Assembly: GCA_963555995.3 (NCBI GenBank)
Contig: OY821641.1
Location: 480,001-544,000, forward strand
Direction: 5' to 3'
DNA length: 64,000 bases
From: Vicinamibacteria bacterium
Lineage (GTDB): Bacteria > Acidobacteriota > Vicinamibacteria > Marinacidobacterales > Marinacidobacteraceae
In this document: in pieces, positions 7,618 through 52,798 of the stretch
Layout: each line of letters opens with the position of its first letter
Numbering within the stretch: the stretch's first letter is position 1
Made by a program: the position numbers and the translations under genes
The notes under the pieces: generated by a model
What the model was told of the DNA's origin: nothing
The model's database searches: none
The model's input: the letters and a program-made list of their open reading frames with translations, nothing else

Positions 7618-7804
7618 TTGACAGCCGGTGGTGAAACCCACGTGAGCGCCGAGACGGGCGAGGCGCCCGGCTGACAAGGCGCGTGCGGGAGGAATACCGG
7701 GTGTATTCCGACCGAAACGCAACACAGAGCGCCTCGTAGAGACGCGGTTCAGACGGGATGCATCGCCCGTCGAACGCCGCGTGGGTTTTGCCACCGGCTG
7801 TTAA
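7618..7804 (+). repeat. 187-bp structured dispersed element (MITE-like/ncRNA), copy 1
   Basis: Terminal inverted repeats ttgacagccggtgg...ccaccggctgttaa; collinear with copies at 21045, 34169, 50175 and 52612. Confidence 0.9.
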
Positions 7805-9507
7805 TGTGGCGCCGTGCGCGGCGCGGAGCGCCGCGCGTGCCGGTCCGGAGACCGGCGTTCCCAGAGGACCCGGCCGCCGACGATCGTCAGGCCCACCTCG
7901 ATCCCGAGGATCGCGTCCGGTTCGGCGGCGCGCGGATCTTCGGAGAGCACCACCACGTCGGCGAGCATGCCCGGCGCCAGGGTCCCCTTGATGTCCTCCT
8001 CCCGGGTCACGAAGGCCCCGTTCCGGGTGTAGCCGATCAGCGCCTCTTCCATCGAGATGGCCTCGTCCGGTCCATAGACCTCACCGGACATCCCCTTGCG
8101 GGTGGTGGCGGCGTAGAGCCCCACCATCGGACCGATCGGTAGGATGTCGCTGGAGAGGACCAGGAACACCCCCCGGTCCATCGCCGAGCGGACCGGGTTG
8201 TTCCGCTCGACGCGGTAGCCGTCCAGGTACTCGCGGTAACGGCCCTCCAGCGTGTAGGTGAAGTTGGGCTGCTGGATGACCAGGATCCCGAGGTCCGCCA
8301 TCCGGTCCATGGTCTCGTCGGACGGCGGCACCGTGAAGTGGTTCAGGGCGTGACGGTGGTCCGGCCGGGGCTCCTCCGCGAGTACGTCGGCGAAGGCGTC
8401 CACCGCCAGCTCGATCGCCGCGTCCCCGATGGCGTGGAACGCGAACTGCCACCCCATCGCGTGCGCTTCGCGGACGATCTCGCGGAACTCCTCCTCCGGG
8501 CGCACCAGGCTGCCGCGGTAGGTCTCCTCGCCCCGGTACGGCTCCTTGGTGTAGGCCGCCGGTCCGGTGAAGCCCCCGTCCACGAAGACCTTGAGCGGAC
8601 CCACCCGCAGCCGCTCGTCGCCCTCGCCGCTCAGCCGGCCGAACGCCTCCATCGCCTCGGTCCCCGCCCACCGGATCTGGACGGCGGCGCGGGGCAGTTC
8701 CTCCCCGAACTCGGCATAGACCGACTCCCACGCCCCGAAGCCCGACGGCGCCACCCCCGCGTGCACGATGCTCGTGATTCCGAGGCGCAGCAGGTCGCGG
8801 AGCGCGGCGACGAAGCTCTCCCGGAGTTCCTCGGGCGTCGCGTCGGGGACGAGGCGGGAGACGAGGTCCTGCCGTTCCCGGATGACGCCGTTCAGCTCGC
8901 CGTCCGGTCCGCGCTCGATGACCCCGCCGTCCGGCTGCGGCGTGCTCCGGTCCACGCCGGCGAGGGACAGCGCGAGGCTCGACGCCACCGCGCTGTGGCC
9001 GCCCGCCCGGGTCAGGATGACCGGGTTCTCCGGAGCGGCGGCGTCGAGGTCGGCCCGGAGCGGCCGGCGCTGCTCGCGCACCTCGTCCTCCGACCAGCCG
9101 TAGCCGGTGATCCATTCGCCCGGCCCGAGTTCGTCGGCCTTGGCCGCCACCAGGTCCTGGAGTTCCTCGATCGAGGAGAGGCCGCCGAGCGGGATGTGCC
9201 GCCGCGCGCGGCCGCGGATGTGGATGTGCGCGTCGTTGAAGCCGGGCATGGCGGTCCGTCCGGCGAGGTCCACCTCGCGTTCGGCCGCGTACCGGTCGCG
9301 GAGCTCGTCGCCGCCCACCGCCAGCACCCTGCCGTCCCGGACGGCGAGCGCGGTCCCGGTCGTTCCCGCCTCGTCGAGCACCAGGACGGTCCCGGAGTGG
9401 AGCAGCAGGTCCACGGGCTCCGGGGCGGTGCAGGCCGCCGGTACGGCGGCGGTCACGCACAGCAGACCGATCAGCCGTAACGGCGTCCGTCCGGCTGCTG
9501 ATTTCAC
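7801..9507 (-). CDS. Amidohydrolase 3 family (YtcJ-like) metal-dependent hydrolase, lipoprotein
   Basis: PGFNDAHIH, KVFVDG, FHAIGDAA and KGTLAPGMLAD motifs; GTG start at 9507 overlaps the upstream stop (GTGA); the stop codon lies in the TTAA end of the 187-bp element. Confidence 0.9.
   Translation of the reverse strand: MKSAAGRTPLRLIGLLCVTAAVPAACTAPEPVDLLLHSGTVLVLDEAGTTGTALAVRDGRVLAVGGDELRDRYAAEREVDLAGRTAMPGFNDAHIHIRGRARRHIPLGGLSSIEELQDLVAAKADELGPGEWITGYGWSEDEVREQRRPLRADLDAAAPENPVILTRAGGHSAVASSLALSLAGVDRSTPQPDGGVIERGPDGELNGVIRERQDLVSRLVPDATPEELRESFVAALRDLLRLGITSIVHAGVAPSGFGAWESVYAEFGEELPRAAVQIRWAGTEAMEAFGRLSGEGDERLRVGPLKVFVDGGFTGPAAYTKEPYRGEETYRGSLVRPEEEFREIVREAHAMGWQFAFHAIGDAAIELAVDAFADVLAEEPRPDHRHALNHFTVPPSDETMDRMADLGILVIQQPNFTYTLEGRYREYLDGYRVERNNPVRSAMDRGVFLVLSSDILPIGPMVGLYAATTRKGMSGEVYGPDEAISMEEALIGYTRNGAFVTREEDIKGTLAPGMLADVVVLSEDPRAAEPDAILGIEVGLTIVGGRVLWERRSPDRHARRSAPRTAPH
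7810..7864. repeat. REP-like palindrome (variant B) within the 3' end of the amidohydrolase gene
   Basis: gccgtgcgcggcgcggagcgccgcgcgtgccggtccggagaccggcgttccc matches 46117-46169 and the reverse complement of 33298-33349. Confidence 0.75.
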
Positions 9508-10085
9508 CGCTGGATTTCCACCTCGGCGGCTTCCCCGAGCCCGAGGTAGATCCGGACGCGGACCAGCGCACTCCCCCGGACCCGGAAGAACGCCGCCCCC
9601 GGGATGTACCACCGGGTCTCGTCGTCGCGGCGGGTGGCGGCGATCGTGAACTGGGCCGCGATCAGCGGCCCTCCCCACGGCCCTTCCGCCTCGGCCCAGA
9701 CGGTTTCGGAAACCTCGGCGGCGGTCGCCACCTCGGGACGGATGGAGTGGTCCTTCCACGCTTCCAGGAGGCGATCCACCAGCAGCCCGACCTTCTCGCG
9801 CCCCCAGTAGGTCGCGGACCCCCGCTGGTAGTCGCCCGCCGGACCCTGGATGTGGAGCGCGTCCTCGGCGTAGAGGGCGAGAAAGGCCGCCCGGCTCTCC
9901 TCGCTACCGTCCAGCGCGTCCACCAGCCGGAACCAGCGTTCCGCGAGCTCCCGCCCGCCGGGTTCGGCTTCCCCGTCCTGCGCGATGCCGGCTGCCGCGG
10001 GCAGCGCCCACCCCAGGGTCAGCAGCAGGATTCCGGCCGCCAATCTCGGGTAAACGCGGGGCCGGCGACTCACGAATCGGAGCAT
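9504..10085 (-). CDS. SnoaL/NTF2-like secreted protein
   Basis: Signal peptide; 'FLALYAEDA...YWGREKV' NTF2-fold pattern; C-terminal beta strands. Confidence 0.7.
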   Translation of the reverse strand: MLRFVSRRPRVYPRLAAGILLLTLGWALPAAAGIAQDGEAEPGGRELAERWFRLVDALDGSEESRAAFLALYAEDALHIQGPAGDYQRGSATYWGREKVGLLVDRLLEAWKDHSIRPEVATAAEVSETVWAEAEGPWGGPLIAAQFTIAATRRDDETRWYIPGAAFFRVRGSALVRVRIYLGLGEAAEVEIQR

Positions 10086-10096
10086 ACCGCCGCGTA

Positions 10097-10308
10097 CCGG
10101 CTTGGAACGCCGGCTTCAGCCGGCACAGCCCGCCGAAGGCGGGCGGCGGGAAGGACCTCATCGGCCGGGATGGCACGAAGGCCGGCACGCTGGCCGCCAG
10201 TTCTTTCGCGGTGCCTCGCCTGCCCACGCGCCATGCGGGCAGGAGGCGTACGTCGTTCCGCTGCGCTTCGCGCAGCGGGTGCCGGCTGAAGCCGGCGTTC
10301 CAAGCCGG
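10097..10308. repeat. REPIN-like element (variant A), 30-bp perfect terminal inverted repeats
   Basis: ccggcttggaacgccggcttcagccggcac...gtgccggctgaagccggcgttccaagccgg; interior homologous (inverted) to 23783-23991. Confidence 0.9.
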
Positions 10309-10401
10309 GGGCGTCCTCACGACTGTCGGCGGACCCGCGGGAACCGCATTTCAAAGCCATTGGCTCGCCTCGGCGCTGACGCGAGTTTCCCCGCAGCCTC
10401 C

Positions 10402-13344
10402 CTACCGGGCCGCGGCGCAGCGGGCGATGAAGTGCTCCTGCTCGTCGCTCAGCGGCGGGTCTTCGGCGCACCGCGCGAGGGTGACCGCCGCCTCGTCGAA
10501 ACGGTCGAGCGCGGAGAGGGCCTCGGCGCGGAACCAGAGGGCCCGCGCCTCCTGCGCCCGATGCGGACGGCCGACGCCGAGGTTCTCCGGGTAAGTGAGC
10601 GCCCGGTCGAAGTGGGCGAGGGCCGTTGCGGCATCCCCGGCGTCGAGCGCCCGGCGGCCGAGGGCGATTTCGGCTCGCGAGAAGAGTTGCCAGACGGTGG
10701 CGTCGCCCTCCCGGAAGTTGATCCGGGTCGCTTCCAGCATGGCGATCGTCTCCTCGAACCGGCCGGTGGCGTTCAGCGCCCGGGCCAGTTCGATGGTCAC
10801 GTCGTGGCGGCGGCGGGCGTCCGCCGGGACCATCGCCAATGCCTCCACCGCGTCCGCCGGCCGTCCCTCGGCAAGGAGGAGCCGCGCCAAGTCCCGGTAG
10901 AGGGTCTGGTCCGCCGGGCGGGCCGCGACCGCCTGCCAGAGGCGGCTCTCGGCCTCCGCCGTCCGGCCCGCGATCTTCCAGTGGACCATCCCGAGGGCCC
11001 GGTGGGCGGTGGAGAGGCCCGGATCGAGCGCCGTCGCCGCCTCCCACGCCGCGGTCGCTTCCTCGTAGCGGCCGAGACCCCCGAGCAGGTGGCCCAGCAG
11101 CAGCCGTGGCGCCGCCGACGCCGGGAGCCGCTCCGCCGCCGACCGCAGCACCGGGACGGACTCGGGACGCGAAGGGAAGGCGTAGTCGAGCGGGGCGGCG
11201 AGCGCCTCGTCCCGGTAGCCCGCGGCCCGTTCGCCCCCGGCCCACTCCGCGGCGTGGAACAGCAGCACCGGTCCCGGCTCGAAGCCGCCGTGTTCCCGCA
11301 GCGCTTCCAGCACGTCGAGCGCCATCCCGGAGAGTCCCAGTTCGGCCGCCGTCACCAGGAGTTCGGTGAACGCGAACTCCGGTTCCCCCGCCAGCCCCGT
11401 CATGGCCCGCGCCGCCTCGGCGCGCCCGGCGCCGTCGGCGGTGTGGAGGCGCACCGCCCAGGGAATCAGCTCGACGGTGCCCCGTTCGATCATCCGTCCC
11501 GCCAGTCCCGCGGCCCGGTCCCGGTCGCCGGCGCGAAGGTGCGCGAGCGGCAGCAGGTCCCGGCCGCCCCGCCGGAGCGCCGGGATGGCGTCCTCGGCGT
11601 CGCCCTGCCGGACCTTCACCCGGCCGATGAGGCGCCAGGCCGGGGCTTCGACGCCGGCCAGCTTGGTGGCGAGGTAGGCCGAGTCCAGCGCGCCCTCCGC
11701 GTCCCCGAGCCGGTAGCGGGCGACCGCGTGGAAGAAGCGCGCGAAACCGTGCTCGGGGTCGGCGGCGGCGACCCCGGCGAGCCGGTCCGCCGCCCGCTCG
11801 TAGAGCCCGGCCTTCAGGTCCAGCGCGGCGAGTCCCACCGCGGCGTCCGGGTGGCCCGGCGCCAGCGCGAGCGCCCGCTCGTAGAGCCGGCGGGCCTCGG
11901 CGCGGTTCAGGTCCTTGTCGGCGCGTTCGGCGGCCCCGAACGCTGCCTCGGCGTTCGCCGGTTCGGCCGCCTCGAGGAGCGGCGGGGGTTCCTCCACCGG
12001 GATCTCGAGCGGAGACCGGTAGGCGAGGACGTTCCCGCCGCCGGCGGTCACCGCGACCTCGATCGGCGCCTCCGCCGGCCCCGGCCATTCGACGGCCGCG
12101 ACCGCCTCCGGCGCCAGGTCGAGGGTCGTGGAGTGTTCCGTGCCGCCGCCGCTCAGCCGGACGGTCGCCCCGGGCAGGGCTCTCGTGGCGAGGAACAGGA
12201 AGCGCGTCCCCGCCTCATCCTCGACCCGCTCGACCACCAGGTCGGGCGTCGCGTATTCGAATCCCTCGCCGAGCCCGAACACCGGCGTCCACTGTTCGCG
12301 CCAGAACACCCGCTGGCCCGGATAGACCCAGGCGTAGTCCGACTGGGTGGGCAGCGGACCGCTCTGCACCTCGATGTAGGGGCCGTCCTCGTCCGTGAGC
12401 GCCCGCTGGTTCATCATGCCGTCGTCGCCCTGGCCCCAGGTCCAGCCCTTCTTGCCGGGGAGTTCGCGATGGTCCGCGGTCTGGACGATGCCCCGGTCGT
12501 CCCCCGCGTCGTAGGCGCCGAAGAAGTCGTGGACTGCCCGGTAGGCGAAGATCGAGGTCGGTTCGGGATAGTTGGGGAGCCGCGTCATGTCCACCCCGTC
12601 GTCTTCCGGGAAGCGGTAGAAGGTGGTCCCGAAGTGGTCGCTGGCGAGCGACATCGGGTAGATGAACCGGGTGCCGTCCCGCTGGGGGAAGGCGGTGTTG
12701 TTCCAGAAGTAGTAGGGATAGGGGAGGTCGGTCGGGTTGAAGATGGTGATCTCCTGGTCGAGCTGCGCCGCGCCCGGGCGGAGCGTGAGGCGCACCTCCC
12801 AGCCGGTGCGGAAGCTCTGCTCGATCTCGCCGATCACGAGCGTTGCCGACCCGTCCTCGTTCTGTACCCCGGTGACGTTCACGGGCGAATAGCTGGTCAC
12901 CGTGTGTCCCTGGGGGCCGCGGTTCCACTCGATCCCGCCGGAGACCCACGCGCCCCGCAGCGCGATCAGGCCGGGCCGGATGACCCGGTTGTTGTAGAAC
13001 ATCTGCTCGTTCTCGCGCTTGTCGAGGACCCACTGGATGCGGCCCCCGATCTCGGGAAGACAGGCCACCTTCAGGTACTCGTTCTCGAGGAAGAAGGCCC
13101 GCCAGGTGTGGTCGGCCCGTTCCGTGCCGAGGTTGTCCTGCATCGTGTAGGGGTAGACGATGGAGCCGTCGGTTTCGCGGAACTGCGGGTTCGGGTCGTC
13201 GGGCAGCAGGGCGTAGGTGGGGAGGGTGAGTTCCCCCTCCCAGACGCGGACGGGTTCCTGTCCGGTCGCGGGAACGGAAACGGCGGCAGCGAGAGACAGC
13301 GCCGTCAGCAGGGTCGGGGGGCGTGGAGAGAGCATGCGCGTCAC
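10402..13344 (-). CDS. DUF5107-domain TPR-repeat protein (secreted)
   Basis: LENEYLKVACLPEIGGRI, PGLIALRGAWVSGGIEWN, PGKKGWTWG and YIEVQSG motifs; C-terminal TPR repeats; signal peptide. Confidence 0.85.
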   Translation of the reverse strand: MTRMLSPRPPTLLTALSLAAAVSVPATGQEPVRVWEGELTLPTYALLPDDPNPQFRETDGSIVYPYTMQDNLGTERADHTWRAFFLENEYLKVACLPEIGGRIQWVLDKRENEQMFYNNRVIRPGLIALRGAWVSGGIEWNRGPQGHTVTSYSPVNVTGVQNEDGSATLVIGEIEQSFRTGWEVRLTLRPGAAQLDQEITIFNPTDLPYPYYFWNNTAFPQRDGTRFIYPMSLASDHFGTTFYRFPEDDGVDMTRLPNYPEPTSIFAYRAVHDFFGAYDAGDDRGIVQTADHRELPGKKGWTWGQGDDGMMNQRALTDEDGPYIEVQSGPLPTQSDYAWVYPGQRVFWREQWTPVFGLGEGFEYATPDLVVERVEDEAGTRFLFLATRALPGATVRLSGGGTEHSTTLDLAPEAVAAVEWPGPAEAPIEVAVTAGGGNVLAYRSPLEIPVEEPPPLLEAAEPANAEAAFGAAERADKDLNRAEARRLYERALALAPGHPDAAVGLAALDLKAGLYERAADRLAGVAAADPEHGFARFFHAVARYRLGDAEGALDSAYLATKLAGVEAPAWRLIGRVKVRQGDAEDAIPALRRGGRDLLPLAHLRAGDRDRAAGLAGRMIERGTVELIPWAVRLHTADGAGRAEAARAMTGLAGEPEFAFTELLVTAAELGLSGMALDVLEALREHGGFEPGPVLLFHAAEWAGGERAAGYRDEALAAPLDYAFPSRPESVPVLRSAAERLPASAAPRLLLGHLLGGLGRYEEATAAWEAATALDPGLSTAHRALGMVHWKIAGRTAEAESRLWQAVAARPADQTLYRDLARLLLAEGRPADAVEALAMVPADARRRHDVTIELARALNATGRFEETIAMLEATRINFREGDATVWQLFSRAEIALGRRALDAGDAATALAHFDRALTYPENLGVGRPHRAQEARALWFRAEALSALDRFDEAAVTLARCAEDPPLSDEQEHFIARCAAAR

Positions 13345-13459
13345 CTTGTCTGGCCGGGAGAGGCTAACCCCACGACAGCTATTCGGAACCCGGCGACCGA
13401 CCGGTCGTCGCGGAAGAACGGGCGAGCTGCCCCGGCCCGTCCCGCAGAGCCGGCCGGAA

Positions 13460-14083
13460 TCAATTCCCTGGTGCGCCTGGGTCTGTCAGACGGTTCTGGC
13501 GCCGAAGCTCCATGGCGACGAAAGGGGATTCCCTCACCAGCACGTCGAAACAGATCCGCCCCGTCCAGAAGTCCGCAGCGTGGCTCTCCCGCGTGGTGCG
13601 AAACGCGTAGTCGTTGAGTTTCAATCGGCAGATCGTCGCCTCTACCTGGGCCCGAATCTCCGCCGACAACCGCCTGCCCGGACAAACCTGGAAACCGCTC
13701 AGCTCGATACGAAACCAGCCATCCTCAAGCTCGAAGGGATCGAGGACATCCAGCCAGTTGTTCTTCCGGGAGTTCATACGCGAGGAGGCGAGTCGGAAAT
13801 TGCTCCACTCGTAGATGAGATGCCACTCCCGCGACTTGGGGGCCATGTGATCCACGGAGGCGGCGCCGGTTACAGCATGGATGCGGAAACAGGAATACGC
13901 GCAGATCTCGTTGTATGCCTTCATGAGATCCGGTATGGCCTTTCTCCAAAGACTCGGCAAGCGGTCGACCAGTTCATCGGGAGGCGTCGCCTCGGCCTTC
14001 AACCGCTCGATGGCCCTTTTCCCCGGTTTGCGCACCTTCGTGTCGAAACCCGGAGGCTCGGGTGCCGGCGTAACGGGAATCAT
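13460..14083 (-). CDS. HNH endonuclease (PtuB/retron-effector-like)
   Basis: Starts MIPVTPAPEP at 14083 (ATGA overlap with the ATPase stop); CAYSC...VDHMAPK...WSNFRLASSRMNSRK HNH motif. Confidence 0.85.
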   Translation of the reverse strand: MIPVTPAPEPPGFDTKVRKPGKRAIERLKAEATPPDELVDRLPSLWRKAIPDLMKAYNEICAYSCFRIHAVTGAASVDHMAPKSREWHLIYEWSNFRLASSRMNSRKNNWLDVLDPFELEDGWFRIELSGFQVCPGRRLSAEIRAQVEATICRLKLNDYAFRTTRESHAADFWTGRICFDVLVRESPFVAMELRRQNRLTDPGAPGN

Positions 14084-15327
14084 CGTCCCATCGAATGCCG
14101 ATACTGAGTCCAGCGGACCCAGAAGCGATCCACGTCGCTCAGGGCAGCCCGAAGTGCACCCTCCACCTGATCCAGTTCGTCGCCGGACGCTGTGCCGTCC
14201 CTGCGGAAGAGCGCCAAAGCATCGGTAATCGCGTTCTCCGCCTCGATAGAGCGCGGTTCCGTCAGATCGAACACGGAAGACGTGAGCCAAGCGTTGGCGT
14301 CGCCGTGTCGGCTCCAGGAATGTTCGAGAAGCGTGACGCTTCTTTCTTCGAGTTTCAGTTCCCACACGGCGTCGGAGTCTTTGTCGAACTGCGCTTCGAC
14401 GGACGCCAGAATCAGCGGTGAGTGCGTGGCCGCCACCAGTTGCACCGGAATCCCGGCTTCGCCCGTGAGTGCCTCCATCACGTCCAGCAAAGCCGGCACG
14501 ATCCGACGCTGCCACTCCGGGTGAAGGTGCGCTTCGATCTCGTCGATCAGGAAGATGATCTCACGGGCAGGCGCATCGCCGCGCAATTCTGCGGACGCCA
14601 CATGTTCCTGCCAAGTCCACACCAGCAAATAGGCTAGGGAGACGATGCGGCGAATTCCGGCCGAAGCGTGCACCAGCGGCACTTCCAGCCCGTACGGGGA
14701 CCTAATGGTGGGATGTTTCCGCGCGTCGCTGAGCGATAGCTTGATGAGTTCTCCCGGTTCCAGAGGTTCGGCTGGAGACGGCGAGAGCGCCACGAGGACG
14801 CTTTTTAGCTGCCGCATGGCGTCGCCGTCCTCGAGCTGCCAGTTCGCCCAATCCGCAATCAGCCCGTTGCAGTATTTGGTGGACCCTCCGAGGGGCAGGC
14901 CGTCCCAGACTTCCCGGCCCGAGAACAGGTACGCCGCCTGCCTTTCGCTGTCCTGCTCCTTCCAGTAGTTTCGGGCTGGGTCCCAGACCGAGAAGCCGCC
15001 GTCGACCTGGGCATAAAGCACGAGACCGGGAATCGGCGGGCGGCCCCGCCGCAGCTTCCACTGTTCTTCGCCACGGTCGAAGTTACTCTCGTACTCATGG
15101 GGTTTCGATTTGGCTCCGTAGCGGTAGAGAATTCTCGGAACGGCAGGGGGCCGATGCGGCACGAGCATCGTCCGCGCCCAGGTTCGAGTAAGAGCCCACC
15201 AAGCGGCTTCGAGAAGAAAGGATTTGCCGAGCCCGTTGTCGCCAGTCAGGAAGTTCATCCGACGTCGGAAATCGAGCGTCAAGCGCGGCGCCGGGCCGAC
15301 GCCCTCGAAGCTCAACCGTTCGATCAT
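14080..15327 (-). CDS. ABC/AAA_21-type ATPase (PtuA-like defence ATPase)
   Basis: Walker A GDNGLGKS, signature ASAG, Walker B LIDEIEAHLHPEWQ, ATHSPLI. Confidence 0.9.
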   Translation of the reverse strand: MIERLSFEGVGPAPRLTLDFRRRMNFLTGDNGLGKSFLLEAAWWALTRTWARTMLVPHRPPAVPRILYRYGAKSKPHEYESNFDRGEEQWKLRRGRPPIPGLVLYAQVDGGFSVWDPARNYWKEQDSERQAAYLFSGREVWDGLPLGGSTKYCNGLIADWANWQLEDGDAMRQLKSVLVALSPSPAEPLEPGELIKLSLSDARKHPTIRSPYGLEVPLVHASAGIRRIVSLAYLLVWTWQEHVASAELRGDAPAREIIFLIDEIEAHLHPEWQRRIVPALLDVMEALTGEAGIPVQLVAATHSPLILASVEAQFDKDSDAVWELKLEERSVTLLEHSWSRHGDANAWLTSSVFDLTEPRSIEAENAITDALALFRRDGTASGDELDQVEGALRAALSDVDRFWVRWTQYRHSMGR

Positions 15328-15379
15328 CTGGACGAGGACGGTGGTGTCGGCGATGCGCTCCGGGCCCGTGCTCGCAACC

Positions 15380-15607: not shown

Positions 15608-15709
15608 TTCGGTTCGTCCCAAGGAAGAGTATGCGCGAAGACGGACGCGCGTGGCCCGCGTTCGCTGGGTGGAGAGAGAGCTTCGCGCCCGGCCCTGCCT
15701 CTTGCCACG

Positions 15710-21044: not shown

Positions 21045-21231
21045 TTAACAGCCCGTGGTGAAACCCACGCGAGCGCCGAGAGCGGTGAGGCGCCCGGCTG
21101 ACAAGGCGCGTGAGGGAGGAATACCGGGTGTATTCCGACCGAAACGCAACGATGAGCGCCTCGTAGAGGCGCGGTTCAGGCGGGATGCATCGCCGCTCGA
21201 ACGCCGCGTGGGTTTTGCCACAGGCTGTTGA
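21045..21231 (+). repeat. 187-bp structured dispersed element, copy 2
   Basis: ttaacagcccgtgg...ccacaggctgttga; collinear with copy 1. Confidence 0.9.
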
Positions 21232-23677: not shown

Positions 23678-23782
23678 GTTTTCTACTCTACCGTCGCGGG
23701 CGGCCGCCTCGTCCCCACCGGAAGAAGACCCCCATGATCGGGTCCTCCCGCACACCCCGCCGGTCATGAGAATTGCGGAAAC

Positions 23783-23991
23783 GGCTTGGAGCGCCGGCTT
23801 CAGCCGGCACCCGCTGCGCGGAGCGCAGCGGAACGGCGTACGGCTCCTGCCCGCATGGCGCGTGGGCAGGCGAGGCGGCTCCAAAGAACTGGTGGCCGGC
23901 GTTCCCGGCCTTTGCGCCATCCGGGCGGATGAGGTCCTTCCCGCCGCCCGCCTGCGGCGGGCTGTGCCGGCTGAAGCCGGCGTTCCCAGCC
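23783..23991. repeat. REPIN-like element (variant A)
   Basis: ggcttggagcgccggcttcagccggcac...gtgccggctgaagccggcgttcccagcc; interior is the reverse complement of the 10097 copy. Confidence 0.9.
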
Positions 23992-24181
23992 GTTGGACCC
24001 TCACGGCTGTTGGCGGACCCGCACGGGACTGCATCTTCACAGCAACCGGGCCGGCGGCGCCATCACGGCTCCGAGGTGGACCCCCGAAGTAGCACTTTGG
24101 CGACGACTCGCCGCGCTCGGCGCTCGTGGAGGTTTCCCCGCCGGCTGGTAGAATTCCCGCCGGACAATCCGGAGGGGGCCG

Positions 24182-33374: not shown

Positions 33375-34157
33375 CTATCCCGGTTCTTCGCGGAGCGTCA
33401 GCGTCAGGGTCGCGAACGGCGCCTCCCGAACCGAAGCGGGAAGTTCCCGGATGGGGCCGATCGGCTCGTGGGGGGTCACGTCGGCGTCCGGGGCGGTGAA
33501 TGTCACCCCGCTGTCGGTTCCCGCGTCGTAGCCGACCAGATCCATCTCGATCCGTTCCTTCCAGCAACCGTCTTCCATCAGGGGCATCCCGCTAACCCCG
33601 ACGAACCAGTCGGGGCTGGGCGCGATCATCGAGACCAGGGTCACGAGCGGGTGTTCGTCCGCCGCCTCGAAAGACAGCCCGGCCGATCCCGGCGACGGGA
33701 AGGAAGGCTCCGCGCCTCGCACGCAGGTGGTGCTCCCGCCGCGATCCGCTTCCTCGGCGATTTCCCGGCAGAGCGAGGACACGCTGCCGGTCTCGGCCAT
33801 GCTCTCGATGCCCGGAGTGGCAGTGCCGCCGGAACTCCAGAACGAGACCTCGGGCGCATGGGCGGCCCCCACGACCCGCGAGAAGTGCGGGTTGGACGGG
33901 AAGGGCGGCCGGCTGCCGTGCGAGGACGCATTCCAGACCGCCCGGAAGGTCACCGCGTAGGTCGCTGCATCGGGGCACTCGGGTTCCGGCATCGGCTCCG
34001 GAGGCGGCGGAGCCGGCGCCGGGGGTGCGGGCGCCGGAGCCGGCGCCGGCGTGGAGGGTGCATCGGACCCGCAGGCGAGCGCGAACAAGGCGAGAACGAG
34101 GCAGGCCAATATCCCGCGGAGCGGGGTGCTGGTTGTTGCTTGAGGGGGTACGAACAT
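33375..34157 (-). CDS. Spondin_N domain lipoprotein
   Basis: Lipobox LALAC; Pro-rich linker; YAVTFRAVW, HFSRVVGAAH, SMIAPSPDWFVG and YDAGTDSG spondin/mindin motifs. Confidence 0.9.
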   Translation of the reverse strand: MFVPPQATTSTPLRGILACLVLALFALACGSDAPSTPAPAPAPAPPAPAPPPPEPMPEPECPDAATYAVTFRAVWNASSHGSRPPFPSNPHFSRVVGAAHAPEVSFWSSGGTATPGIESMAETGSVSSLCREIAEEADRGGSTTCVRGAEPSFPSPGSAGLSFEAADEHPLVTLVSMIAPSPDWFVGVSGMPLMEDGCWKERIEMDLVGYDAGTDSGVTFTAPDADVTPHEPIGPIRELPASVREAPFATLTLTLREEPG

Positions 34158-34168: not shown

Positions 34169-34355
34169 TTAGCAGCCTGTGGCAAAACCCTCGTGGCGTT
34201 CAAGCGTTGATGCATCCCCGCTGAACCGCGCCGCTGTGCGGCGCTCGGCGTTGCGTTTCGGTCGGAATACACTCGGTATTCCTCCCTCACGCGCCTTGTC
34301 AGCGGGGCGCTTCACCGCTCTCGGCGCTCACGGGGGTTTCACCACAGGCTGTTAA
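34169..34355 (-). repeat. 187-bp structured dispersed element, copy 3 (opposite orientation)
   Basis: ttagcagcctgtggcaaaacc...ggtttcaccacaggctgttaa. Confidence 0.9.
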
Positions 34356-34442
34356 CACCCGGTGGAGAGAGTGGCGTGAGCACCGGGCCGGGAGAAACGA
34401 CGGCACCGAACTTTGTTCGCTGCCCGCGTGATCGGGGGAAAG

Positions 34443-37860: not shown

Positions 37861-38019
37861 GGGAGCGACCTCCGTCCGGATCACGATGCGAAGAGCACGT
37901 CCGGACCCGGAGGTCCGGGCGTCATGCGATGTCACGTCCGTGCAATTTCGTTGCCAGCACCGCCGGCCCGCGGGCGGTTCGTCGCTCCTTCGGGCGCGTT
38001 GGCGCGCGCCGCGGAGCCA

Positions 38020-38195
38020 TCCCGGCGAATGAGGCCCGTCCGGCCGCCCGCCTTCGGCGGGCGGTGCCGGCTGAAGCCGGCGTTCCAGGCCGTTTCCGCC
38101 GTTTTCATGCCCGGCGGGGTGCGCCGTAGGACACGCGTATGTGCGTGTCGCCTCCCTGCGGTCGCGGCGATGCCGGCCGGAGGCCGGCGCTCCGG
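38020..38195. repeat. Partial REPIN-like element (variant A arm plus flanking module) and a REP palindrome
   Basis: gcccgccttcggcgggcggtgccggctgaagccggcgttccaggccgtttccgccgttttcatgcccggcggggtg; second palindrome tgccggccggaggccggcgctcc near 38171. Confidence 0.75.
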
Positions 38196-41562: not shown

Positions 41563-41586
41563 GCCACCACTCCGATTCTCGCGTCG

Positions 41587-43047: not shown

Positions 43048-45833
<2,786 letters not shown>

Positions 45834-45879
45834 GCGTCGGAGCCGGGTAAACCGGATGAATTTAGCAGCAGCGGGGAGC

Positions 45880-46169: not shown

Positions 46170-46173
46170 CGCG

Positions 46174-47112
46174 CTACGGGGTGTAGTCGACGATGTAGTT
46201 CAGGGGGTCCTGGGCGCGTTCGTTGATCCAGACCTCGTAGTGGAGGTGGGGCGCGCGGCTGCGTCCGGTGTTCCCCACGAGGCCGAGGACCTGGCCGCGG
46301 CGGAGCCGCTGGCTTCGTCGAACGTCAATCCGGGACAGGTGCGCGTACCGGGTCACGGCGCCGAAGCCGTGAGACACCACCACGTACTTGCCGTAGGTCG
46401 GCGAAGTGGCCGTCTCGACGACGAGTCCGTCCGCGGTCACGCGAACCGGGGTTCCGGTCCGCGCGTTGAGGTCGAGGCCGTAGTGCCGCTCGATCTCTCC
46501 GGTGAACGGGTCGCTGCGCATCCCGAACCCGGACGACAGGTACCCGCGAATCGGCCAGATGGAAGGGGTCGAAGCGAGCAGTCGGCTCTTCTCCCGCATC
46601 GTCCGTTCGAGCGCCACGCTCTGCTGGTTCAGGGTGGCGATCCGGCCGGACAAATCTTCCAGGCGGTCGCTCACGTAGTCGTATCCGGCGGGTGAACTCA
46701 CCGCGCCGCCGATGCCGCCGATCGGCGTCGGAATCGGCTCGGCGCCGGCGATCACCGCCAGCTTGCGCATCTGTATCTCGAGGGACTCGATCCTGCCGGC
46801 CATGCGCTCCGTGTCCTCGGCGTAGCCCCGATTCAACTGCCGGAGCGCGTCGCGCTCCTCGACCAGCGCCACCGAAGCCGGCCCGGGCGTCACGAGCAGC
46901 CAGCCGTAGTGCCCGGCCAGCCCGAGTGCGGCCAGCGCCGCGAAGCCGGCGATCCGCCGGAATCCCGGCGTGATCCGGACCTCGCGCGGCGTGTGGCTCC
47001 GCGCCCCGAAGACGATGATCCTGGTGGGGACCCGGTTCGAATCCGCGTCCGATGCGCGGGATGCAGCCGGGCCGCGAAACCGTCGGAGCGAGCGCAGAGT
47101 CCGTCCAAACAT
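46174..47112 (-). CDS. M23 family metallopeptidase (peptidoglycan DD-endopeptidase)
   Basis: TM helix and coiled coil; PSIWP, HYGLD, YAHL and HLHYEV motifs. Confidence 0.93.
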   Translation of the reverse strand: MFGRTLRSLRRFRGPAASRASDADSNRVPTRIIVFGARSHTPREVRITPGFRRIAGFAALAALGLAGHYGWLLVTPGPASVALVEERDALRQLNRGYAEDTERMAGRIESLEIQMRKLAVIAGAEPIPTPIGGIGGAVSSPAGYDYVSDRLEDLSGRIATLNQQSVALERTMREKSRLLASTPSIWPIRGYLSSGFGMRSDPFTGEIERHYGLDLNARTGTPVRVTADGLVVETATSPTYGKYVVVSHGFGAVTRYAHLSRIDVRRSQRLRRGQVLGLVGNTGRSRAPHLHYEVWINERAQDPLNYIVDYTP

Positions 47113-47151
47113 GGAATAACTAGCGGATTCTGACCCACTTGACGCGGTATT

Positions 47152-47589
47152 TCAACTTCGCTCCAGGGGAGGAGGGGGTGCGCCACCCGCGCCCTCGCCG
47201 GGCAGCAGGCGGAGTCGCGGCAGGTCGTCTTCGGCCCACTCGACCGCCCCGCCGGACTCCAGAAGGGCGAGCTTCCCGAGGCAGCGCGCGACCGGGTCCC
47301 GCAGGGGCGGGACTTCGAAGAACACCGCATCGGCCGGCAGGGCATCGAGCGCCGCCAGCCCGCTCGACAGCAGGCTCGCGGCCCCCCGGTATCCGGAGGT
47401 CTGGAGGTGGTACATCCCGGCCGCCAGTTTCACCAGCGCCTTCAGCGTCTCCCGCCGCACGCCGCGGGCGCCGGCCCATTCCTCTTCGAGAACGTCGTGG
47501 CTCTCGTAGTAGGCCCGCTCGTTGAACAGCCTGGCCGCTTCGAGCACGGCGGAGTCACCTCCGGGGGCGAGCCCGGCGTTTTCGCTCAC
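47152..47589 (-). CDS. DUF309 domain protein
   Basis: LFNERAYYESHDVLEEEW...KALVKLAAGMYH; GTG start overlaps the comM stop. Confidence 0.85.
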   Translation of the reverse strand: MSENAGLAPGGDSAVLEAARLFNERAYYESHDVLEEEWAGARGVRRETLKALVKLAAGMYHLQTSGYRGAASLLSSGLAALDALPADAVFFEVPPLRDPVARCLGKLALLESGGAVEWAEDDLPRLRLLPGEGAGGAPPPPLERS

Positions 47590-49157
47590 CGGCCGCCCCC
47601 GGTCGTTCGGGCGTCGGAAGCCCGGCCGAAGCGCCCGCTGGGCGCCGGTTCGCCGAGGTCGCTGGCGGCCCGGAACTGGATCGCCTCCTCGAAGTGCAGG
47701 GGCTCGATCCGGCCGCTCCCCGCGAGATCGGCGATCGTGCGCGCCACCCGGAACGCGCGGGTCACGCCGCGCGCCGACATGCCGAGCCCGTCCATCGCCC
47801 AGGCCACCAGCGAGCGGAAGGGGCCCGAGGCCGACGCCGCCTTCACTTCGGCGATGGTCATGCGGTGACGCGTCTTCGCGGTGCGGAACCGCTCCGCCCC
47901 CGCCTCGCGCGCCCGGCGCACCCGCTCCCGGACGACGGCGGTGGTCTCTCCGGAAGCCGGTCCCAGGACATCGCCGGAGGTTACCGGCCGCACCGTGAGG
48001 TGGATGTCCACCCGGTCGAGCAGGGGGCCGGAGATCCGCGAGCGGTAGCGCGCCACGAACGCGGGGGGACAGCGGCAGGGCCTCCCGCCCTCGCCGTGAA
48101 AGCCGCAGGGACAGGGGTTCATGGCCGCGGCCAGTTGGAACGACGCGGGGAAACGGACGGAGTGCCGGACCCGGCCCACGTGGATGTCGCCGCTCTCGAG
48201 CGGCTGGCGGAGGCACTCCAGGACCGGCCGCTGGAACTCGGCGAGCTCGTCGAGGAACAGCACCCCGTGGTGCGCGAGGGTCACTTCTCCCGGCCGGGGT
48301 CCCGACCCCCCGCCCGCCATCCCGGCATACGAGATGGTGTGGTGCGGGGCCCGGAACGGAGGCCGGGTCGGGGGCGCGGCGAGCGGCTGGCCGATCGCCG
48401 AGCGGATGCGGGCCACGTCCATCGCCTGCTCCGGCGAGAGCCGAGGCAGCAGGTCCGGCAGGATGCCGACCAGCAGCGTCTTCCCGCTCCCCGGGGGGCC
48501 CGTGAAGAGGAGGTTGTGGGCCCCGGCCGCGGCGATCTCGAGCGCCCGCCGGGCGCGCGGCTGTCCCCGGACCTGGGCCAGGTCCACTCCGGTGCGGGAA
48601 ACGGGCCGCGCTTCGGCCGCGGGCCGGAAAGGCGGGGGCAGCTCGGGGAGGGCGAGCAGGTCCGCCGCGGCGTGCAGGCTGGCGGCCGGGTACACCCGAA
48701 TCCCGGGGACCATGGCGGCCTCGGCGGCGTTCTCGGGGTGGACGATGGCCGCGTGCATCCCGGCCGCCGCCGCTTCCCAGGCGATCGGCAGTCCGCCCGG
48801 GACGGGCCGCAGCGCGCCGTCGAGGGCCAGCTCGGCGAGCAGCAGGGTGTCCGCCAGCCGGTGGCGGGGCGCCACGCCGGTCGCCGCCAGGATCCCGAGC
48901 GCCACCGCGAGGTCGAATCCCGCCCCTTCCTTGCGGACCCCCGCGGGCGCCAGGTTGATCACCACGTGCCCCGGGGGGACGTGGAAGCCGCTGTTGCGCA
49001 GCGCGGCCTTGACCCGCAACTGGGCTTCGCGGATCACCGCGTCCGGGAGGCCGACGGTGCGGAAGGAGCTCTGGTCGGCGCGCTGCAGGTCCACCTCGAC
49101 CCGGATCAGCAGTCCCTCCACGCCGCGGACCGTCCCCGTGCGGGTGACCGCGAGCAA
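47586..49157 (-). CDS. comM: YifB/ComM family Mg-chelatase-like AAA+ ATPase
   Basis: VGLPD, INLAPA, GPPGSGKT, PFRAPHHT, PGEVTLAHHGVLFLDE and AAMNPCPCG motifs; probable TTG start at 49157. Confidence 0.93.
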   Translation of the reverse strand: MLAVTRTGTVRGVEGLLIRVEVDLQRADQSSFRTVGLPDAVIREAQLRVKAALRNSGFHVPPGHVVINLAPAGVRKEGAGFDLAVALGILAATGVAPRHRLADTLLLAELALDGALRPVPGGLPIAWEAAAAGMHAAIVHPENAAEAAMVPGIRVYPAASLHAAADLLALPELPPPFRPAAEARPVSRTGVDLAQVRGQPRARRALEIAAAGAHNLLFTGPPGSGKTLLVGILPDLLPRLSPEQAMDVARIRSAIGQPLAAPPTRPPFRAPHHTISYAGMAGGGSGPRPGEVTLAHHGVLFLDELAEFQRPVLECLRQPLESGDIHVGRVRHSVRFPASFQLAAAMNPCPCGFHGEGGRPCRCPPAFVARYRSRISGPLLDRVDIHLTVRPVTSGDVLGPASGETTAVVRERVRRAREAGAERFRTAKTRHRMTIAEVKAASASGPFRSLVAWAMDGLGMSARGVTRAFRVARTIADLAGSGRIEPLHFEEAIQFRAASDLGEPAPSGRFGRASDARTTGGGR

Positions 49158-49446
49158 TCGTCCCCGGCGGGGGTTCCGCCCCGCCTCGGCGTTCTCGATC
49201 TGTGGCACGAGAACATAGACGTAAATCGGCCGATTTTTTCCCGCCGGAGCGCGAATTGTGGAAAAGTCGAAGCGAAGCGGCACTTTGGAGGCCCGTTTTC
49301 GGCCTCGGGGAGCCCCACGGGATACGATTCAGGGCCGCCGAGCGCTTCGCCGGGCGGCCCATCCGGGCGGATCCCCCGGCCCGGAGGCCCGACCCGGAGG
49401 GCGGGCTCGAGGCCGGCGCTCCGCCCGCTCCCCACTCCGTCAACTC

Positions 49447-50178
49447 ATGGACCCAGTCACCCTGCTCTACGCCGTCGGAGCCGGCGTGCTGTCCTTCCTG
49501 TCGCCCTGCGTGCTGCCCCTCGTGCCCGGCTACATCTCGTTCGTTTCGGGAACCTCGCTCAGCGAACTCGCGGACGGCGCGTCCACCGGGGACGCGGCGG
49601 TCCGCCGGCGCCGGGTGATCGTGAACACCGTCGCCTTCGTGCTGGGCTTCTCCATCGTCTTCGTGGCCATGGGAGCGTCGGCGACCTACGCCGGCCAGTG
49701 GCTCGCCGGGAACCGGGTCTTCCTCGGGCGCATCGCGGGAACGATCATCGTGCTGTTCGGCCTGCACGTGATGGGCGTGCTGAAGATCCCCTTCCTGAAC
49801 GTGGAGAAGCGCTTCCACGCGAACCGGGAGCCGGTGAGCCTCCTCGGCTCCTTCGTGATCGGCCTCGCCTTCGCCTTCGGCTGGTCCCCCTGCATCGGGC
49901 CGATCCTCGCGACCGTCCTGGTGGTCGCGGCGAACTACGAGACCGTGAACCAGGGCATCATCCTGCTCAGCGGCTATTCGCTGGGGCTCGGGGTGCCCTT
50001 CCTGCTCACCGGGATCGCGGTGGACCGGTTCTTCGCCATATCGAAGAAAATCAAGCGCCACATGCGGGTGGTGGAAGTGGTCGCCGGCGTGCTCCTGGTC
50101 GTCATCGGAGTGCTGGTGTTCACCGACAGCCTGCAGGCGCTCTCGCAATACCTCACCTTCCTTCCGGTACTCGGTTAA
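49447..50178 (+). CDS. ccdA: Cytochrome c biogenesis protein CcdA (DsbD TM domain)
   Basis: GVLSFLSPCVLPLVP and FGWSPCIGPIL redox Cys motifs; the TAA stop lies in the end of the 187-bp element. Confidence 0.93.
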   Translation: MDPVTLLYAVGAGVLSFLSPCVLPLVPGYISFVSGTSLSELADGASTGDAAVRRRRVIVNTVAFVLGFSIVFVAMGASATYAGQWLAGNRVFLGRIAGTIIVLFGLHVMGVLKIPFLNVEKRFHANREPVSLLGSFVIGLAFAFGWSPCIGPILATVLVVAANYETVNQGIILLSGYSLGLGVPFLLTGIAVDRFFAISKKIKRHMRVVEVVAGVLLVVIGVLVFTDSLQALSQYLTFLPVLG

Positions 50179-50361
50179 CAGCCTGTGGCAAAACCCACGC
50201 GGCGTTCGAGCGGCGATGCATCCCGTCTGAACCGCGCCTCTACGAGGCGCTCTGCGTTGCGTTTCGGTCGGAATACACTCGGTATTCCTCCCTCATGCGC
50301 CTTGTCAGCCGGGCGCCTCACCGCTCTCGGCGCTCACGTGGGTTTCACCACAGGCTGTTAG
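50175..50361 (-). repeat. 187-bp structured dispersed element, copy 4 (opposite orientation)
   Basis: ttaacagcctgtggcaaaaccc...gggtttcaccacaggctgttag. Confidence 0.9.
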
Positions 50362-50379
50362 ACCTCGGCGGAGTCCTCC

Positions 50380-50766
50380 ATGCCAACCCTGCTCTTCGTT
50401 TCCCTGATGTTCGTCTCCGGCGCGCCGGCCCAGGAGGTCTGGACGGTTCCGGACGAGGCCCGGGCGGTCGAGAACCCGGTCGCGCTCACCGACGAGGCGC
50501 TGGCTGCCGGCGAGAACGCCTACGGCGCCCGCTGCGCCTCCTGCCACGGCGACGCCGGGAAGGGCGACGGCCCGGCCACCCGGTTCATCAAGCCGGCGCC
50601 CGCGGACTTCGCGACCGTCGAAGCGCGCGACCGGATGACCGACGGCGAGATCTTCTACAAGATCACCGAGGGCAAGAAACCCATGCCGGGCATGGCCCGG
50701 ACGCTCAGCGACGAGGAACGCTGGCAGGTCGTCCACTACGTGCGGACGCTGCAGCCGCCGCGCTGA
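50380..50766 (+). CDS. Monoheme cytochrome c
   Basis: Signal peptide, CASCH heme motif, distal Met (KPMPG), WQVVHYVR. Confidence 0.92.
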   Translation: MPTLLFVSLMFVSGAPAQEVWTVPDEARAVENPVALTDEALAAGENAYGARCASCHGDAGKGDGPATRFIKPAPADFATVEARDRMTDGEIFYKITEGKKPMPGMARTLSDEERWQVVHYVRTLQPPR

Positions 50767-50786
50767 CCAGACGGAGGATCAGAACC

Positions 50787-51359
50787 ATGACCGCTCCCCA
50801 GAACCCGCCCGCAGGCCGGGTCGCCTTCGCTCTCGCAATCCTGCTCGCCGGTCTGCTCGCGTTTTCGGCGTGCGGCCCGCCCCCACCGGGCGCCGGCGGC
50901 GGCGCCGGAGGGATGGCGGCCACCGCCCCCGACGTCACGCTGCCGCTCGTGGACGGGAGCGGTGACGTGAGCCTCCGGGGCGACGGCGCCGGCAAGGTCG
51001 TCCTGGTGGATCTGTGGGCGACCTGGTGCGTCCCCTGCGTCGCCGAGCTTCCCCATCTGCAGGAACTGTCGGAGGAGCTGTCCGACGACGACTTCCTGAT
51101 GCTCGGGATCCTGCTCGAGTCGGGCGATGCGGACGACGTGGCCCCGTTCATCGCGGAAAGGGGCCTCACCTACCCCAACGTGATGGGGTCCGGCGAGGTG
51201 CGCGATTCGTTCGGCCCGTTCCTCGGCTATCCGACCAAGTACCTCATTGACCGCGACGGCAACCTCGTGAAGCGCTACCTCGGCGCGGTCGGCGAGATCC
51301 TCAACGAGGAAATCGGCAAGCTCATCGAAACCGGCTCGCGACCGCCGAGGCGACCGTGA
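50787..51359 (+). CDS. TlpA/ResA-like thiol:disulfide oxidoreductase lipoprotein
   Basis: GGAGG RBS; lipobox FSAC; LWATWCVPC and YPTKYLIDRDG motifs. Confidence 0.92.
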   Translation: MTAPQNPPAGRVAFALAILLAGLLAFSACGPPPPGAGGGAGGMAATAPDVTLPLVDGSGDVSLRGDGAGKVVLVDLWATWCVPCVAELPHLQELSEELSDDDFLMLGILLESGDADDVAPFIAERGLTYPNVMGSGEVRDSFGPFLGYPTKYLIDRDGNLVKRYLGAVGEILNEEIGKLIETGSRPPRRP

Positions 51360-52608
51360 GGTCGCCGGTGACGTTCGTCGCCGTGCGGATCATGTCCAGG
51401 AGCCGGTCCACTCCGAGGATCAGGGCCACGCCCTCGGCGGGCACCCCGATCGCCTGCAGGATGATGACGAGCATGATGATCCCGGCGCCGGGGACGGCGG
51501 CGGTCCCGATGGAGACGAGCACGGCCGTCAGCACGATGGCGAGCTGTCCCTCGAGTCCGATGGACATGCCGAGCGACTGGGCGATGAAGAGCGCCGCGAC
51601 CGCCTGGTAGAGCGCCGTCCCGTCCATGTTGATCGTCGCGCCGAGCGGCAGCACGAACGAGGAGACCTCCTCGGAGACCCCGAGGTCGCGCTGGGCGCGG
51701 TCCATGGTCACCGGCAGGGTGGCGCCGCTGGAGCTGGTGGAGAAGGCCACGAGCTGCACCTGGGCGGCGGCGGGGAAGAAGCGCCGCCAGCGGATGGGCG
51801 TCAGGAGCTTGAGGACCAGCGGATAGACCACCAGCATCTGGGTGGCGAGACCCGCGATCACGACCACGCAGTAGAAGCCGAGCGCTCCGAGGAGCTGGGT
51901 CACCTGTTGCGGGTCGTCCCCGGCCATTCCCGTGATCGCGCGGGCGATCAGCGCGAACACGCCGAGCGGCGCCATCTTCATCACGATCCCGACGAACTCG
52001 ACGACGACTGCTTCGAGCCCCTGGAAGAAGGCGAGCAGCGGCGCGCTCTTCTCCTTCGGGATCCGGAGCAGCGCGATCCCGAAGATGAGCGCCAGGAAGA
52101 CCACCTGGAGCATGTTGCGGTTGCTCGACGTCGAGGAGACGACGTTGTCCGGCACGATGTCCTGGAGGATGCTGAGCGGCCCCCGCTCCTCCATCATCGC
52201 CTCCGCCGCGCCCTGGCGGCTGGCGGCGGCCTCCTCGTACTGGTCCGCCAACTCCCGTTGCAGGCCCTCCGGCACGTAGTCGCCGGGCCGCACCAGGTTG
52301 GCGTAGCCGAGGCCGATGCACACGGCGAGCGCGGTCGTGGCCACGTAGATGACGATGGTCTTCCCGCCGATCCGGCTGACCTTGCGCATGTCGCTGAGCG
52401 AGGCCACGCCGATGACCAGCGAGGCGATGACCAGCGGCACCGCGATCAACTGGAGCCCGTTGAAGAACACGTCCCCGAACGGCGAGATCCAGTCGTCGGT
52501 GAACTCGCCCCAGCCGTTGGCCGCGGCCACGACCCCGTAGATGACGCCGAGGGCGAGGCCGAGGACGATCTGCACCCAGAGCTTGCGGTACCAGGGAGTG
52601 TTCTTCAT
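51322..52608 (-). CDS. Dicarboxylate/amino acid:cation symporter (DAACS, GltP/DctA family)
   Basis: AFSTSSSGATLP, LPLGATINMDGTA and DRLLDMIRTATNVTGD motifs. Confidence 0.95.
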   Translation of the reverse strand: MKNTPWYRKLWVQIVLGLALGVIYGVVAAANGWGEFTDDWISPFGDVFFNGLQLIAVPLVIASLVIGVASLSDMRKVSRIGGKTIVIYVATTALAVCIGLGYANLVRPGDYVPEGLQRELADQYEEAAASRQGAAEAMMEERGPLSILQDIVPDNVVSSTSSNRNMLQVVFLALIFGIALLRIPKEKSAPLLAFFQGLEAVVVEFVGIVMKMAPLGVFALIARAITGMAGDDPQQVTQLLGALGFYCVVVIAGLATQMLVVYPLVLKLLTPIRWRRFFPAAAQVQLVAFSTSSSGATLPVTMDRAQRDLGVSEEVSSFVLPLGATINMDGTALYQAVAALFIAQSLGMSIGLEGQLAIVLTAVLVSIGTAAVPGAGIIMLVIILQAIGVPAEGVALILGVDRLLDMIRTATNVTGDLTVASAVASRFR

Positions 52609-52611
52609 GTG

Positions 52612-52798
52612 TTAGCAGCCTGTGGATAAAGTGACGTGAGTACCGAGGCCGGTGAGGCGCCCGGCTGACAAGGCGCGCGAGGGAGGAATACCGAGTGTAT
52701 TTCGACCGAAGCGCAACGATGAGCGACGCGGAGCGGCGCGGTTCAGCCGGGATGGATCGCCGGCCGAATACCGCGTGACTTTGTTCACAGGCTGCTGA
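52612..52798 (+). repeat. 187-bp structured dispersed element, copy 5 (most divergent)
   Basis: ttagcagcctgtggataaagtgacg...cgtgactttgttcacaggctgctga; same length, with many compensatory changes. Confidence 0.88.

Follow-up and report, generated by a model that had tools for sequence, protein, structure and literature searches.

Miniature inverted-repeat transposable elements, or MITEs, with long hairpins and with ends matched to those of an insertion sequence (IS) are well described, as set out in the consulted sections of PMC2229807. Here we analyse a dispersed 187-bp repeat in a window of 64,000 nucleotides (positions 480,001 to 544,000 of contig OY821641.1, assembly GCA_963555995.3) from a Vicinamibacteria bacterium, whose 3.8-Mb, 70% GC genome is called G000 below. 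Like the RUP/IS630-Spn1 and Correia/NEMIS elements, as those sections present them (PMC2229807), the repeat is shorter than 200 bp and non-coding, is bounded by terminal inverted repeats (TIRs) and a target duplication, lies between genes, forms a long stem-loop joining its 5' and 3' ends, and shares these ends with a co-resident IS. It differs from them in being GC-rich, in its 4-bp YTAR duplication and IS1182-like partner (TA and IS630 in RUP and Correia), and in an interior that is not IS-derived and is conserved across families with unrelated ends. The MITE cores of Neisseria, E. coli and Anabaena share no similarity, according to the part of PMC3184786 consulted. The same part describes bcr1 of the Bacillus cereus group, likewise a mobile repeat (~155 bp) whose distribution in genomes is not conserved and in which compensatory changes keep a branched structure; compared by description only, bcr1 differs in its 5-bp duplications and in having been shown to be transcribed, and neither end swapping nor a cross-phylum core is described for it there (PMC3184786). 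ERIC, or IRU, is likewise a rod-shaped MITE with an orientation bias relative to transcription. REPINs, and REP sequences with their REP-associated tyrosine transposase (RAYT), are hairpin-forming, non-autonomous repeats that rely on one folded DNA strand. A REPIN would be a REP doublet with a co-occurring RAYT and without IS-type TIR or target-site duplication (TSD); the repeat studied here, by contrast, has TIRs and duplications of IS type and is abundant in genomes in which a RAYT was not found. No description of this family, or of a MITE core shared across phyla, was found in the literature searched, to which most subscription journals did not belong; the census of 1.4 million MITEs in PMC11602168, consulted in part, may list such sequences.

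Judged by its sequence, the 187-bp repeat is a MITE. The sequence-only reading from which this work started had placed five copies of 187 bp each in the window (Table 1) and a truncated sixth at 60454. Sequence comparison bore out the coordinates, strands and lengths of the five, whose pairwise identity is 79-95% without gaps, and reduced the sixth to its first 41 nt, followed by REP-like sequence. The mobile body proper is 179 bp, the figure of 187 counting the 4-bp target copy at each end. A profile built from the five copies gave 169 matches in G000, 80 of them near full length and 75 of exactly 187 bp, and none in the reversed genome. The supposedly invariant length holds for the window copies; genome-wide there are also 186-188-, 204- and 275-bp forms and nested forms of 367-369 bp. 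Of four junction motifs likewise thought invariant, three are present in all five copies and ctgacaaggcgcg in four. No gene is called inside the body and no transposase is encoded among the 40 window proteins scanned, as had been noted. By our home-made gene calls the copies are almost all intergenic (2/86 sites overlap a called gene), and many share the stop codons of neighbouring genes. The family is present in 33 of 41 related genomes; distant blastn against a plasmid collection gave no match.

The search for empty sites that had been proposed indicates that the copies are mobile units. Comparison with congener loci at ~90% identity shows four of the five sites in the window to lack the element, and clean flank alignments there give a net difference of 183 bp. 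One such case is the 7618 site, which is empty in G014 with that difference. The element is missing from all four congener loci at 21045 (three of them with clean 4-nt sites), from all five at 50175, where contigs from two of four RNA runs also span the site without it, and from all four at 52612, one of which carries a different 79-nt stretch. At the 34169 site none of three congener loci has clean flanks.

The mover is suggested by the ends. Outside the window, G000 holds three intact copies (G000:C1:362858, 2715918 and 3789945; 99.9-100% identical) of a 1515-bp IS that encodes a 475-aa transposase with DUF772 and DDE_Tnp_1 domains and has a perfect 15-bp TIR, both ends being identical to the consensus left end of the MITE. 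The sequence-only reading had held that a match to an already described IS end would tell against its proposal, and this match does so in as far as the IS counts as described: of the options it had offered, the MITE stands, an independent mobile RNA is not supported, and a single-stranded DNA element would fit the loops better than RNA, as argued below. Left ends of the MITE differ from the IS TIR by at most one mismatch in 50 of 80 copies, and right ends by at most two in 54 of 80. All three IS copies have perfect 4-bp TSDs (TTAA, TTAG and GTAA). Flanking 4-mers are identical in 30 of 39 young MITE copies (those with a near-identical sibling), including the non-palindromic TTAG/TTAG; such non-palindromic 4-bp duplications rule out a 2-bp TA duplication model for the 187-bp family. 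In G018, of the related genus g4, the one IS copy examined has AATT flanks, and among eight fetched MITEs four are flanked by AATT/AATT, one by AATT/AATG and one by TATT/TATT. Since IS and MITEs both use AATT in that genome, target choice follows the resident transposase, a coupling that speaks indirectly for movement in trans.

The partner IS has the DUF772 and DDE architecture, ~1.5-kb length, 15-bp TIR and 4-bp duplication of the IS1182 family, and IS1182 is the best NCBIfam model for its transposase; ISPse1, for comparison, has 1653 bp, a 16/16 TIR and a 4-bp direct repeat (PMC3281130, in the part consulted). Several observations weigh against the account of movement by this IS. The transposase scores below the IS1182 cut-off (NF033551, 146.2 vs 270 bits), as it does for its second-best match, IS5_4 (83 vs 140), so that family placement is approximate and we name the element IS1182-like. 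Of 22 old MITE copies, a single one still has identical flanks. The transposase query was unmatched in 10 of 15 congeners, including the single-contig G014, and in G020, all of which carry MITE copies, and the empty-site 4-mers of congeners (TCAA, TCAG, TGAG and TTGA) differ from the flanks in G000. For the congeners without a match and the differing 4-mers we infer IS loss and drift.

Other mobile elements of G000 were considered in this context. A 594-aa DDE element has CTAG flanks and different ends, and was rejected as the mover; it occurs in four copies (G000:C1:1699007, 2145923, 3742172 and 3792565), one of them inserted at a MITE flank. Several mobile elements of this genome use YTAG targets and accumulate at one another's ends. 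IS630- and IS701-type domains were not found in G000. A 348-bp internal-deletion derivative of the IS1182-like element lies at G000:C1:3647890-3648237, and a 224-bp element with IS1182-like ends and an unrelated interior, present in some congeners and absent from others, at G000:C1:2852763-2852988.

The pattern of variation indicates that the interior of the MITE is under selection. The fold has a z-score of -11. In an alignment of 39 sequences the observed pairing is 94%, a value reached by none of 500 shuffles, and slid controls give 28-42%. Across the 67 distinct cores used for the covariation statistics, two or more Watson-Crick types occur at 27 of 63 Watson-Crick pairs, and the four non-Watson-Crick consensus pairs are all G·T; the compensatory swaps quoted in the earlier reading were all found in the five window sequences. 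Conservation of at least 95% is seen at 35 of 45 unpaired positions, compared with 78 of 134 paired ones. Two further proposals of that reading also held, namely that conservation of the structure reaches well past the termini, on one strand and to a degree that a plain TIR MITE does not need, and that wobbles favour one strand: the same strand folds better in all 67 cores, with RNA and with DNA parameters. Among pair variants shared by several cores, G·T and A·C stand at 21:4, and among those private to one core at 16:14 (Fisher p=0.02). Against this stands the excess of G·T over A·C that tip branches of the tree also show (51:16), so that the contrast between private and shared variants depends on how variants are classed.

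Of 52 scorable copies, 49 have matching haplotypes in the left and right arms (mean 15.6 and maximum 28 after shuffling), and linkage falls off with distance measured on the folded rod, not on the sequence. Arm symmetry follows in part from pair covariation itself, yet it shows that the surviving recombinants are arm-symmetric. In 54 of 67 cores a side hairpin on the rod has the loop C-GNA-G, in which each of the four bases occurs at N; in the 7618 copy this hairpin contains one mismatch.

The same interior is found between other ends. Six copies in G000 have termini that match an IS630 element of the congeners G001, G004 and G013, and locus L032 has IS630 ends around an exact family-A core; in the IS630-ended family the side hairpin is cut down to a 7-nt GC-GNA-GC minihairpin. 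The transposase of the IS630 partner scores above the cut-off (NF033545, 275 vs 100 bits) and its TA termini match the MITE ends; the partner was not found in G000. The core is present in neither the IS1182-like nor the IS630 element. More end types occur within the same genus and order, and the IS630 elements of G026 and G027 do not match the third of these. At L038:1501-1800 (G004) the right half of the core follows immediately on the 5' part of the IS630 element, a junction that is possibly an intermediate of end swapping.

Across the phylum a covariance model matches 13 of 121 genomes, again with further end types. A pattern scan of GTDB filtered by model R1 left 16 of 80 loci (17 matches) at E<0.01, the unfiltered pattern matches being mostly chance. 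These 16 loci belong to Desulfobacterales, Planctomycetota, Gamma- and Betaproteobacteria, Actinomycetota and Bacteroidota (at least five phyla), and most have TIRs of their own; the module is multicopy in three of four such genomes checked (9, 38 and 51 matches). Their common part consists of a stem, the CAAGGC/AACGC internal loop and an inner hairpin. The stems covary, and the invariance of the loop arises partly by construction in the A2 alignment, which was chosen in part by the search pattern. Counted only where ends were placed on the outer TA or a full TIR, the distance from the 5' end to the start of the loop is 52-57 nt (the core module of the 50175 copy begins 56 nt from its outer TA); in elements that lack the side branch, 53-56 nt separate the end of the loop from the 3' end. 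Exceptions are two elements with a longer 5' arm (67 and 70) and one with a shorter arm (50); misplaced automatic ends (L029, L077, L094, L106, L137, L181 and others) were left out of the count. The Rfam comparison that had been suggested gave no match at the gathering threshold in the window or in 20 related loci, and at E up to 10 only chance matches to microRNA and small nucleolar RNA families. A likeness to E. coli 4.5S signal recognition particle RNA, consisting of a shared 9-mer, was equalled by 64 of 1000 shuffles and discarded.

A comparable loop can be seen in ERIC. By eye, an AAGGY...AACGC loop closed by a stem is present in 4 of the 12 displayed E. coli K-12 ERIC matches, one of them with A-T replacing G-C, and the remaining displayed K-12 matches and Photorhabdus copies have a degenerate loop. 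We fetched the E. coli aceF-lpd spacer, which we take to be an ERIC location, and found the same loop with one G-C changed to A-T. The spacer contains, again by eye, the ERIC1-R and ERIC2 primer sites given in the consulted part of PMC8151986. Model R3 gave no match in K-12, including the aceF-lpd ERIC locus. ERIC further differs from the MITE studied here in its enclosed hairpin (~60 vs ~38 nt), in the distance of the loop from the end (~25 vs ~55 nt), in its ends and in its length (127 bp). The likeness is best read as resemblance, not membership.

The reading we favour, with modest confidence, is that of a non-autonomous MITE probably moved in trans by the IS1182-like DDE transposase, the interior of which would be a folded single-stranded DNA module that aids copying. 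Very probably the terminal repeats are bound by the transposase, which puts the 179-bp body into YTAR sites, in many cases at stop codons. Somewhat more probable than its opposite is that one strand, while transiently single-stranded, snaps into the rod, so that a duplex transposon end forms again at the foot of the rod and the CAAGGC/AACGC loop, held ~55 nt away, serves as the docking site of a widely conserved factor that does not depend on the transposase and is putatively of the host. Variants that keep the fold would then be copied more, and exchange between copies that swaps both arms together would give the core the ends of whichever IS is active. It is only a tentative extension of these ideas, possible and rather doubtful, that bacteria harbour a widespread class of transposase-agnostic parasites, in which an ancient folded single-stranded DNA module, whose invariant CAAGGC/AACGC loop lies five helical turns away from the foot of the hairpin, would dock a universal host protein to boost copying and, through arm-symmetric exchange, would take on new ends and so make use of IS1182-, IS630- and IS5-type transposases, with ERIC as the enterobacterial member.

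The choice of DNA over RNA is inferred from the C-GNA-G triloops, and we give the single-stranded DNA reading roughly twice the weight of an RNA reading. The 7-nt GC-GNA-GC hairpin is particularly stable in DNA although it has two G-C pairs only (PMC3201870, in the part consulted). Several findings weigh on the other side: the GNA branch is missing from most other families, and the loop is non-GNA in G016 and G020; there is no leading- or lagging-strand bias (38/72), which a fork-associated single-stranded step might give; and tolerance of G·T and tandem G·A pairs are found in RNA as in DNA. The same MITE with the same mover could instead act through RNA: read-through or antisense transcripts would form a structure for protein binding or processing, with the effect of promoting transposition or altering the stability of neighbouring mRNA, as has been proposed for ERIC and Correia. 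We consider this unlikely, while giving it more credence than the alternatives that follow. The G·U-type asymmetry and the tandem G·A pairs are typical of RNA, orientation-dependent effects of ERIC on mRNA and RNase III action on Correia elements appear in the consulted sections of PMC2229807, and the transcribed mobile repeat bcr1 with its compensatory changes (PMC3184786, in part) offers a parallel. Element-like contigs were obtained in all four RNA runs, but such contigs carry no information on strand, ends, circles or level, their depth being summed over many copies and organisms. The folding strand, moreover, lies mostly off the mRNA strand. Of 56 sites with co-oriented neighbours, 37 have it antisense to them (p=0.02), and where the nearest gene ends within 100 bp it is sense in 16 cases and antisense in 40; note however that within the 187-bp family by itself the bias falls short of significance (29/46, p=0.10) and that gene calls are home-made. 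The MITE has no promoter- or terminator-like site and no Rfam family, its loops are GNA triloops and not conserved GNRA or UUCG tetraloops, and copies are not kept at orthologous sites.

Selection on the fold could also reflect avoidance of harm. A long perfect hairpin would be cut or would stall replication, so that only rods that are interrupted and rich in purines would survive, the core being an ancient scaffold that is tolerated and has no binding partner. The near-total intergenic placement, the shared stop codons and a folding strand that avoids mRNA fit such host-level purifying selection; yet tolerance needs neither a loop that is invariant across phyla nor a fixed distance of ~55 nt, and pairing is actively restored by covariation, not degraded, all of which makes this account improbable. 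Still less probable is that the covariation arose without selection on the fold, as a side effect of hairpin-templated correction (template switching) together with gene conversion among copies. Copies are indeed heavily mosaic (475/903 four-gamete violations), in 21 of 22 old copies the flank bases next to the stem are still paired, those further out having diverged, and one sibling element is flanked by CTAA/TTAG where congeners show an empty CTAG site. Correction, however, would turn wobbles into Watson-Crick pairs on both strands alike, whereas G·T is fixed at four positions and A·C at none, and it would erase asymmetric loops rather than conserve them. Least credible to us is an element, whether an independent mobile RNA or of HUH type and comparable to a retrozyme or a REPIN, that moves by reverse transcriptase or by a RAYT/TnpA nuclease and merely resembles IS ends. 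Head-to-tail trimers with single shared 4-mers (G000:C1:1754216-1754768 and 1812853-1813405), the second with TTAG junctions inside TTAA outer flanks, are what a circular or rolling template could give, and one RAYT over the NCBIfam cut-off exists in G000 (G000:C1:751453-751791, L013). Reverse transcriptase and RAYT are nevertheless ruled out as movers by their distribution: among 15 congeners RVT_1 was found in only two, and it was not found in G000, G018, G019 or G020, and RAYT was not found in G004, G013, G018, G019 or G020, all rich in MITE copies. A back-joint seen in three of four sequencing runs of unrecorded type has single-copy depth, as a genomic tandem would give, and termini and target sites track DDE elements. 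There is no match to a ribozyme family, and the CTGACAA stretch of the MITE does not fit what we take to be the hammerhead core consensus.

Table 1. Members and parts of the repeat family in the window (window positions; all 187-bp intervals include both 4-bp flanks)
Feature	Position	Strand	Remarks
MITE copy	7618..7804	+	179-bp body 7622-7800; 4-bp flanks TTGA/TTAA
MITE copy	21045..21231	+	flanks TTAA/TTGA; between HlyD-family gene and Rieske oxygenase gene
MITE copy	34169..34355	-	flanks TTAA/CTAA; upstream of spondin-N gene
MITE copy	50175..50361	-	flanks CTAA/TTAA; stop codon in common with DsbD-type gene
MITE copy, AAAGTG subtype	52612..52798	+	flanks TTAG/CTGA
MITE 5' fragment, 41 nt	60454..60494	+	between minisatellite and REP-like doublet
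Degenerate MITE 5' fragment	34352..34392	+	back to back with 34169 copy, TTAA common to both
Degenerate MITE 5' fragment	24104..24150	-	adjoins REP-like cluster
Left TIR, 15 nt (50175 copy)	50343..50357	-	identical to both ends of IS1182-like element G000:C1:362858-364372
Right TIR (50175 copy)	50179..50193	-	typically 2 mismatches to IS end, forming G·T wobbles with left arm
Conserved core module (50175 copy)	50252..50304	-	CAAGGC/AACGC internal loop enclosing hairpin with tandem G·A pairs
Side hairpin (50175 copy)	50234..50250	-	closed by C-GNA-G triloop

The family has also given rise to composite and enlarged forms in G000. At four places a MITE is nested in another copy at an identical core position (G000:C1:278026-278394, 861648-862014, 2494260-2494627 and 2890299-2890666), and this composite seems to have spread as one unit. 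Variants of 275-288 bp, at G000:C1:3472551-3472825 and at nine comparable sites, have one more hairpin block in their 3' arm; this block is also present inside IS630-ended copies of congeners. A second dispersed repeat family in the window consists of REP-like palindromes (10097-10399, 23705-24026, 38016-38169, 60526-60729 and 54364-54546), and elsewhere some REP doublets lie within MITE ends, for example at G000:C1:1019101-1019480. A minisatellite of ~11 units of 32-33 bp (window 60082-60453) reaches precisely to the truncated MITE's left flank.

Among the neighbouring genes, a minus-strand amidohydrolase gene takes its stop codon from the right flank of the 7618 copy. The segment 18305-30556 encodes outer-membrane efflux, HlyD and RND transporter proteins, a KshA-like Rieske oxygenase, a P450-GPP34 fusion and a sterol methyltransferase, and looks like a cluster for steroid modification or export. 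A bacterial gene with a eukaryote-like spondin-N domain lies at 33378-34157. On the chromosome at large, parA/parB-like genes at G000:C1 ~1.62 Mb are near the GC-skew maximum and far from dnaA (3.47 Mb), and the cumulative GC skew falls steeply at 3.2-3.4 Mb.

MITE interiors are usually seen as filler between transposase-binding ends. Here the interior is conserved and the ends are exchangeable across phyla and unrelated transposase families, which implies a hitherto unknown step in MITE propagation. Were the core inert, the repeat would be an ordinary undescribed MITE family with its mover identified. The source genome provides a test system, with an intact, recently active transposase that has matching ends, young identical copies and natural end-swapped variants; and if the link to ERIC were true, the same assay would address the purpose of the ERIC structure.

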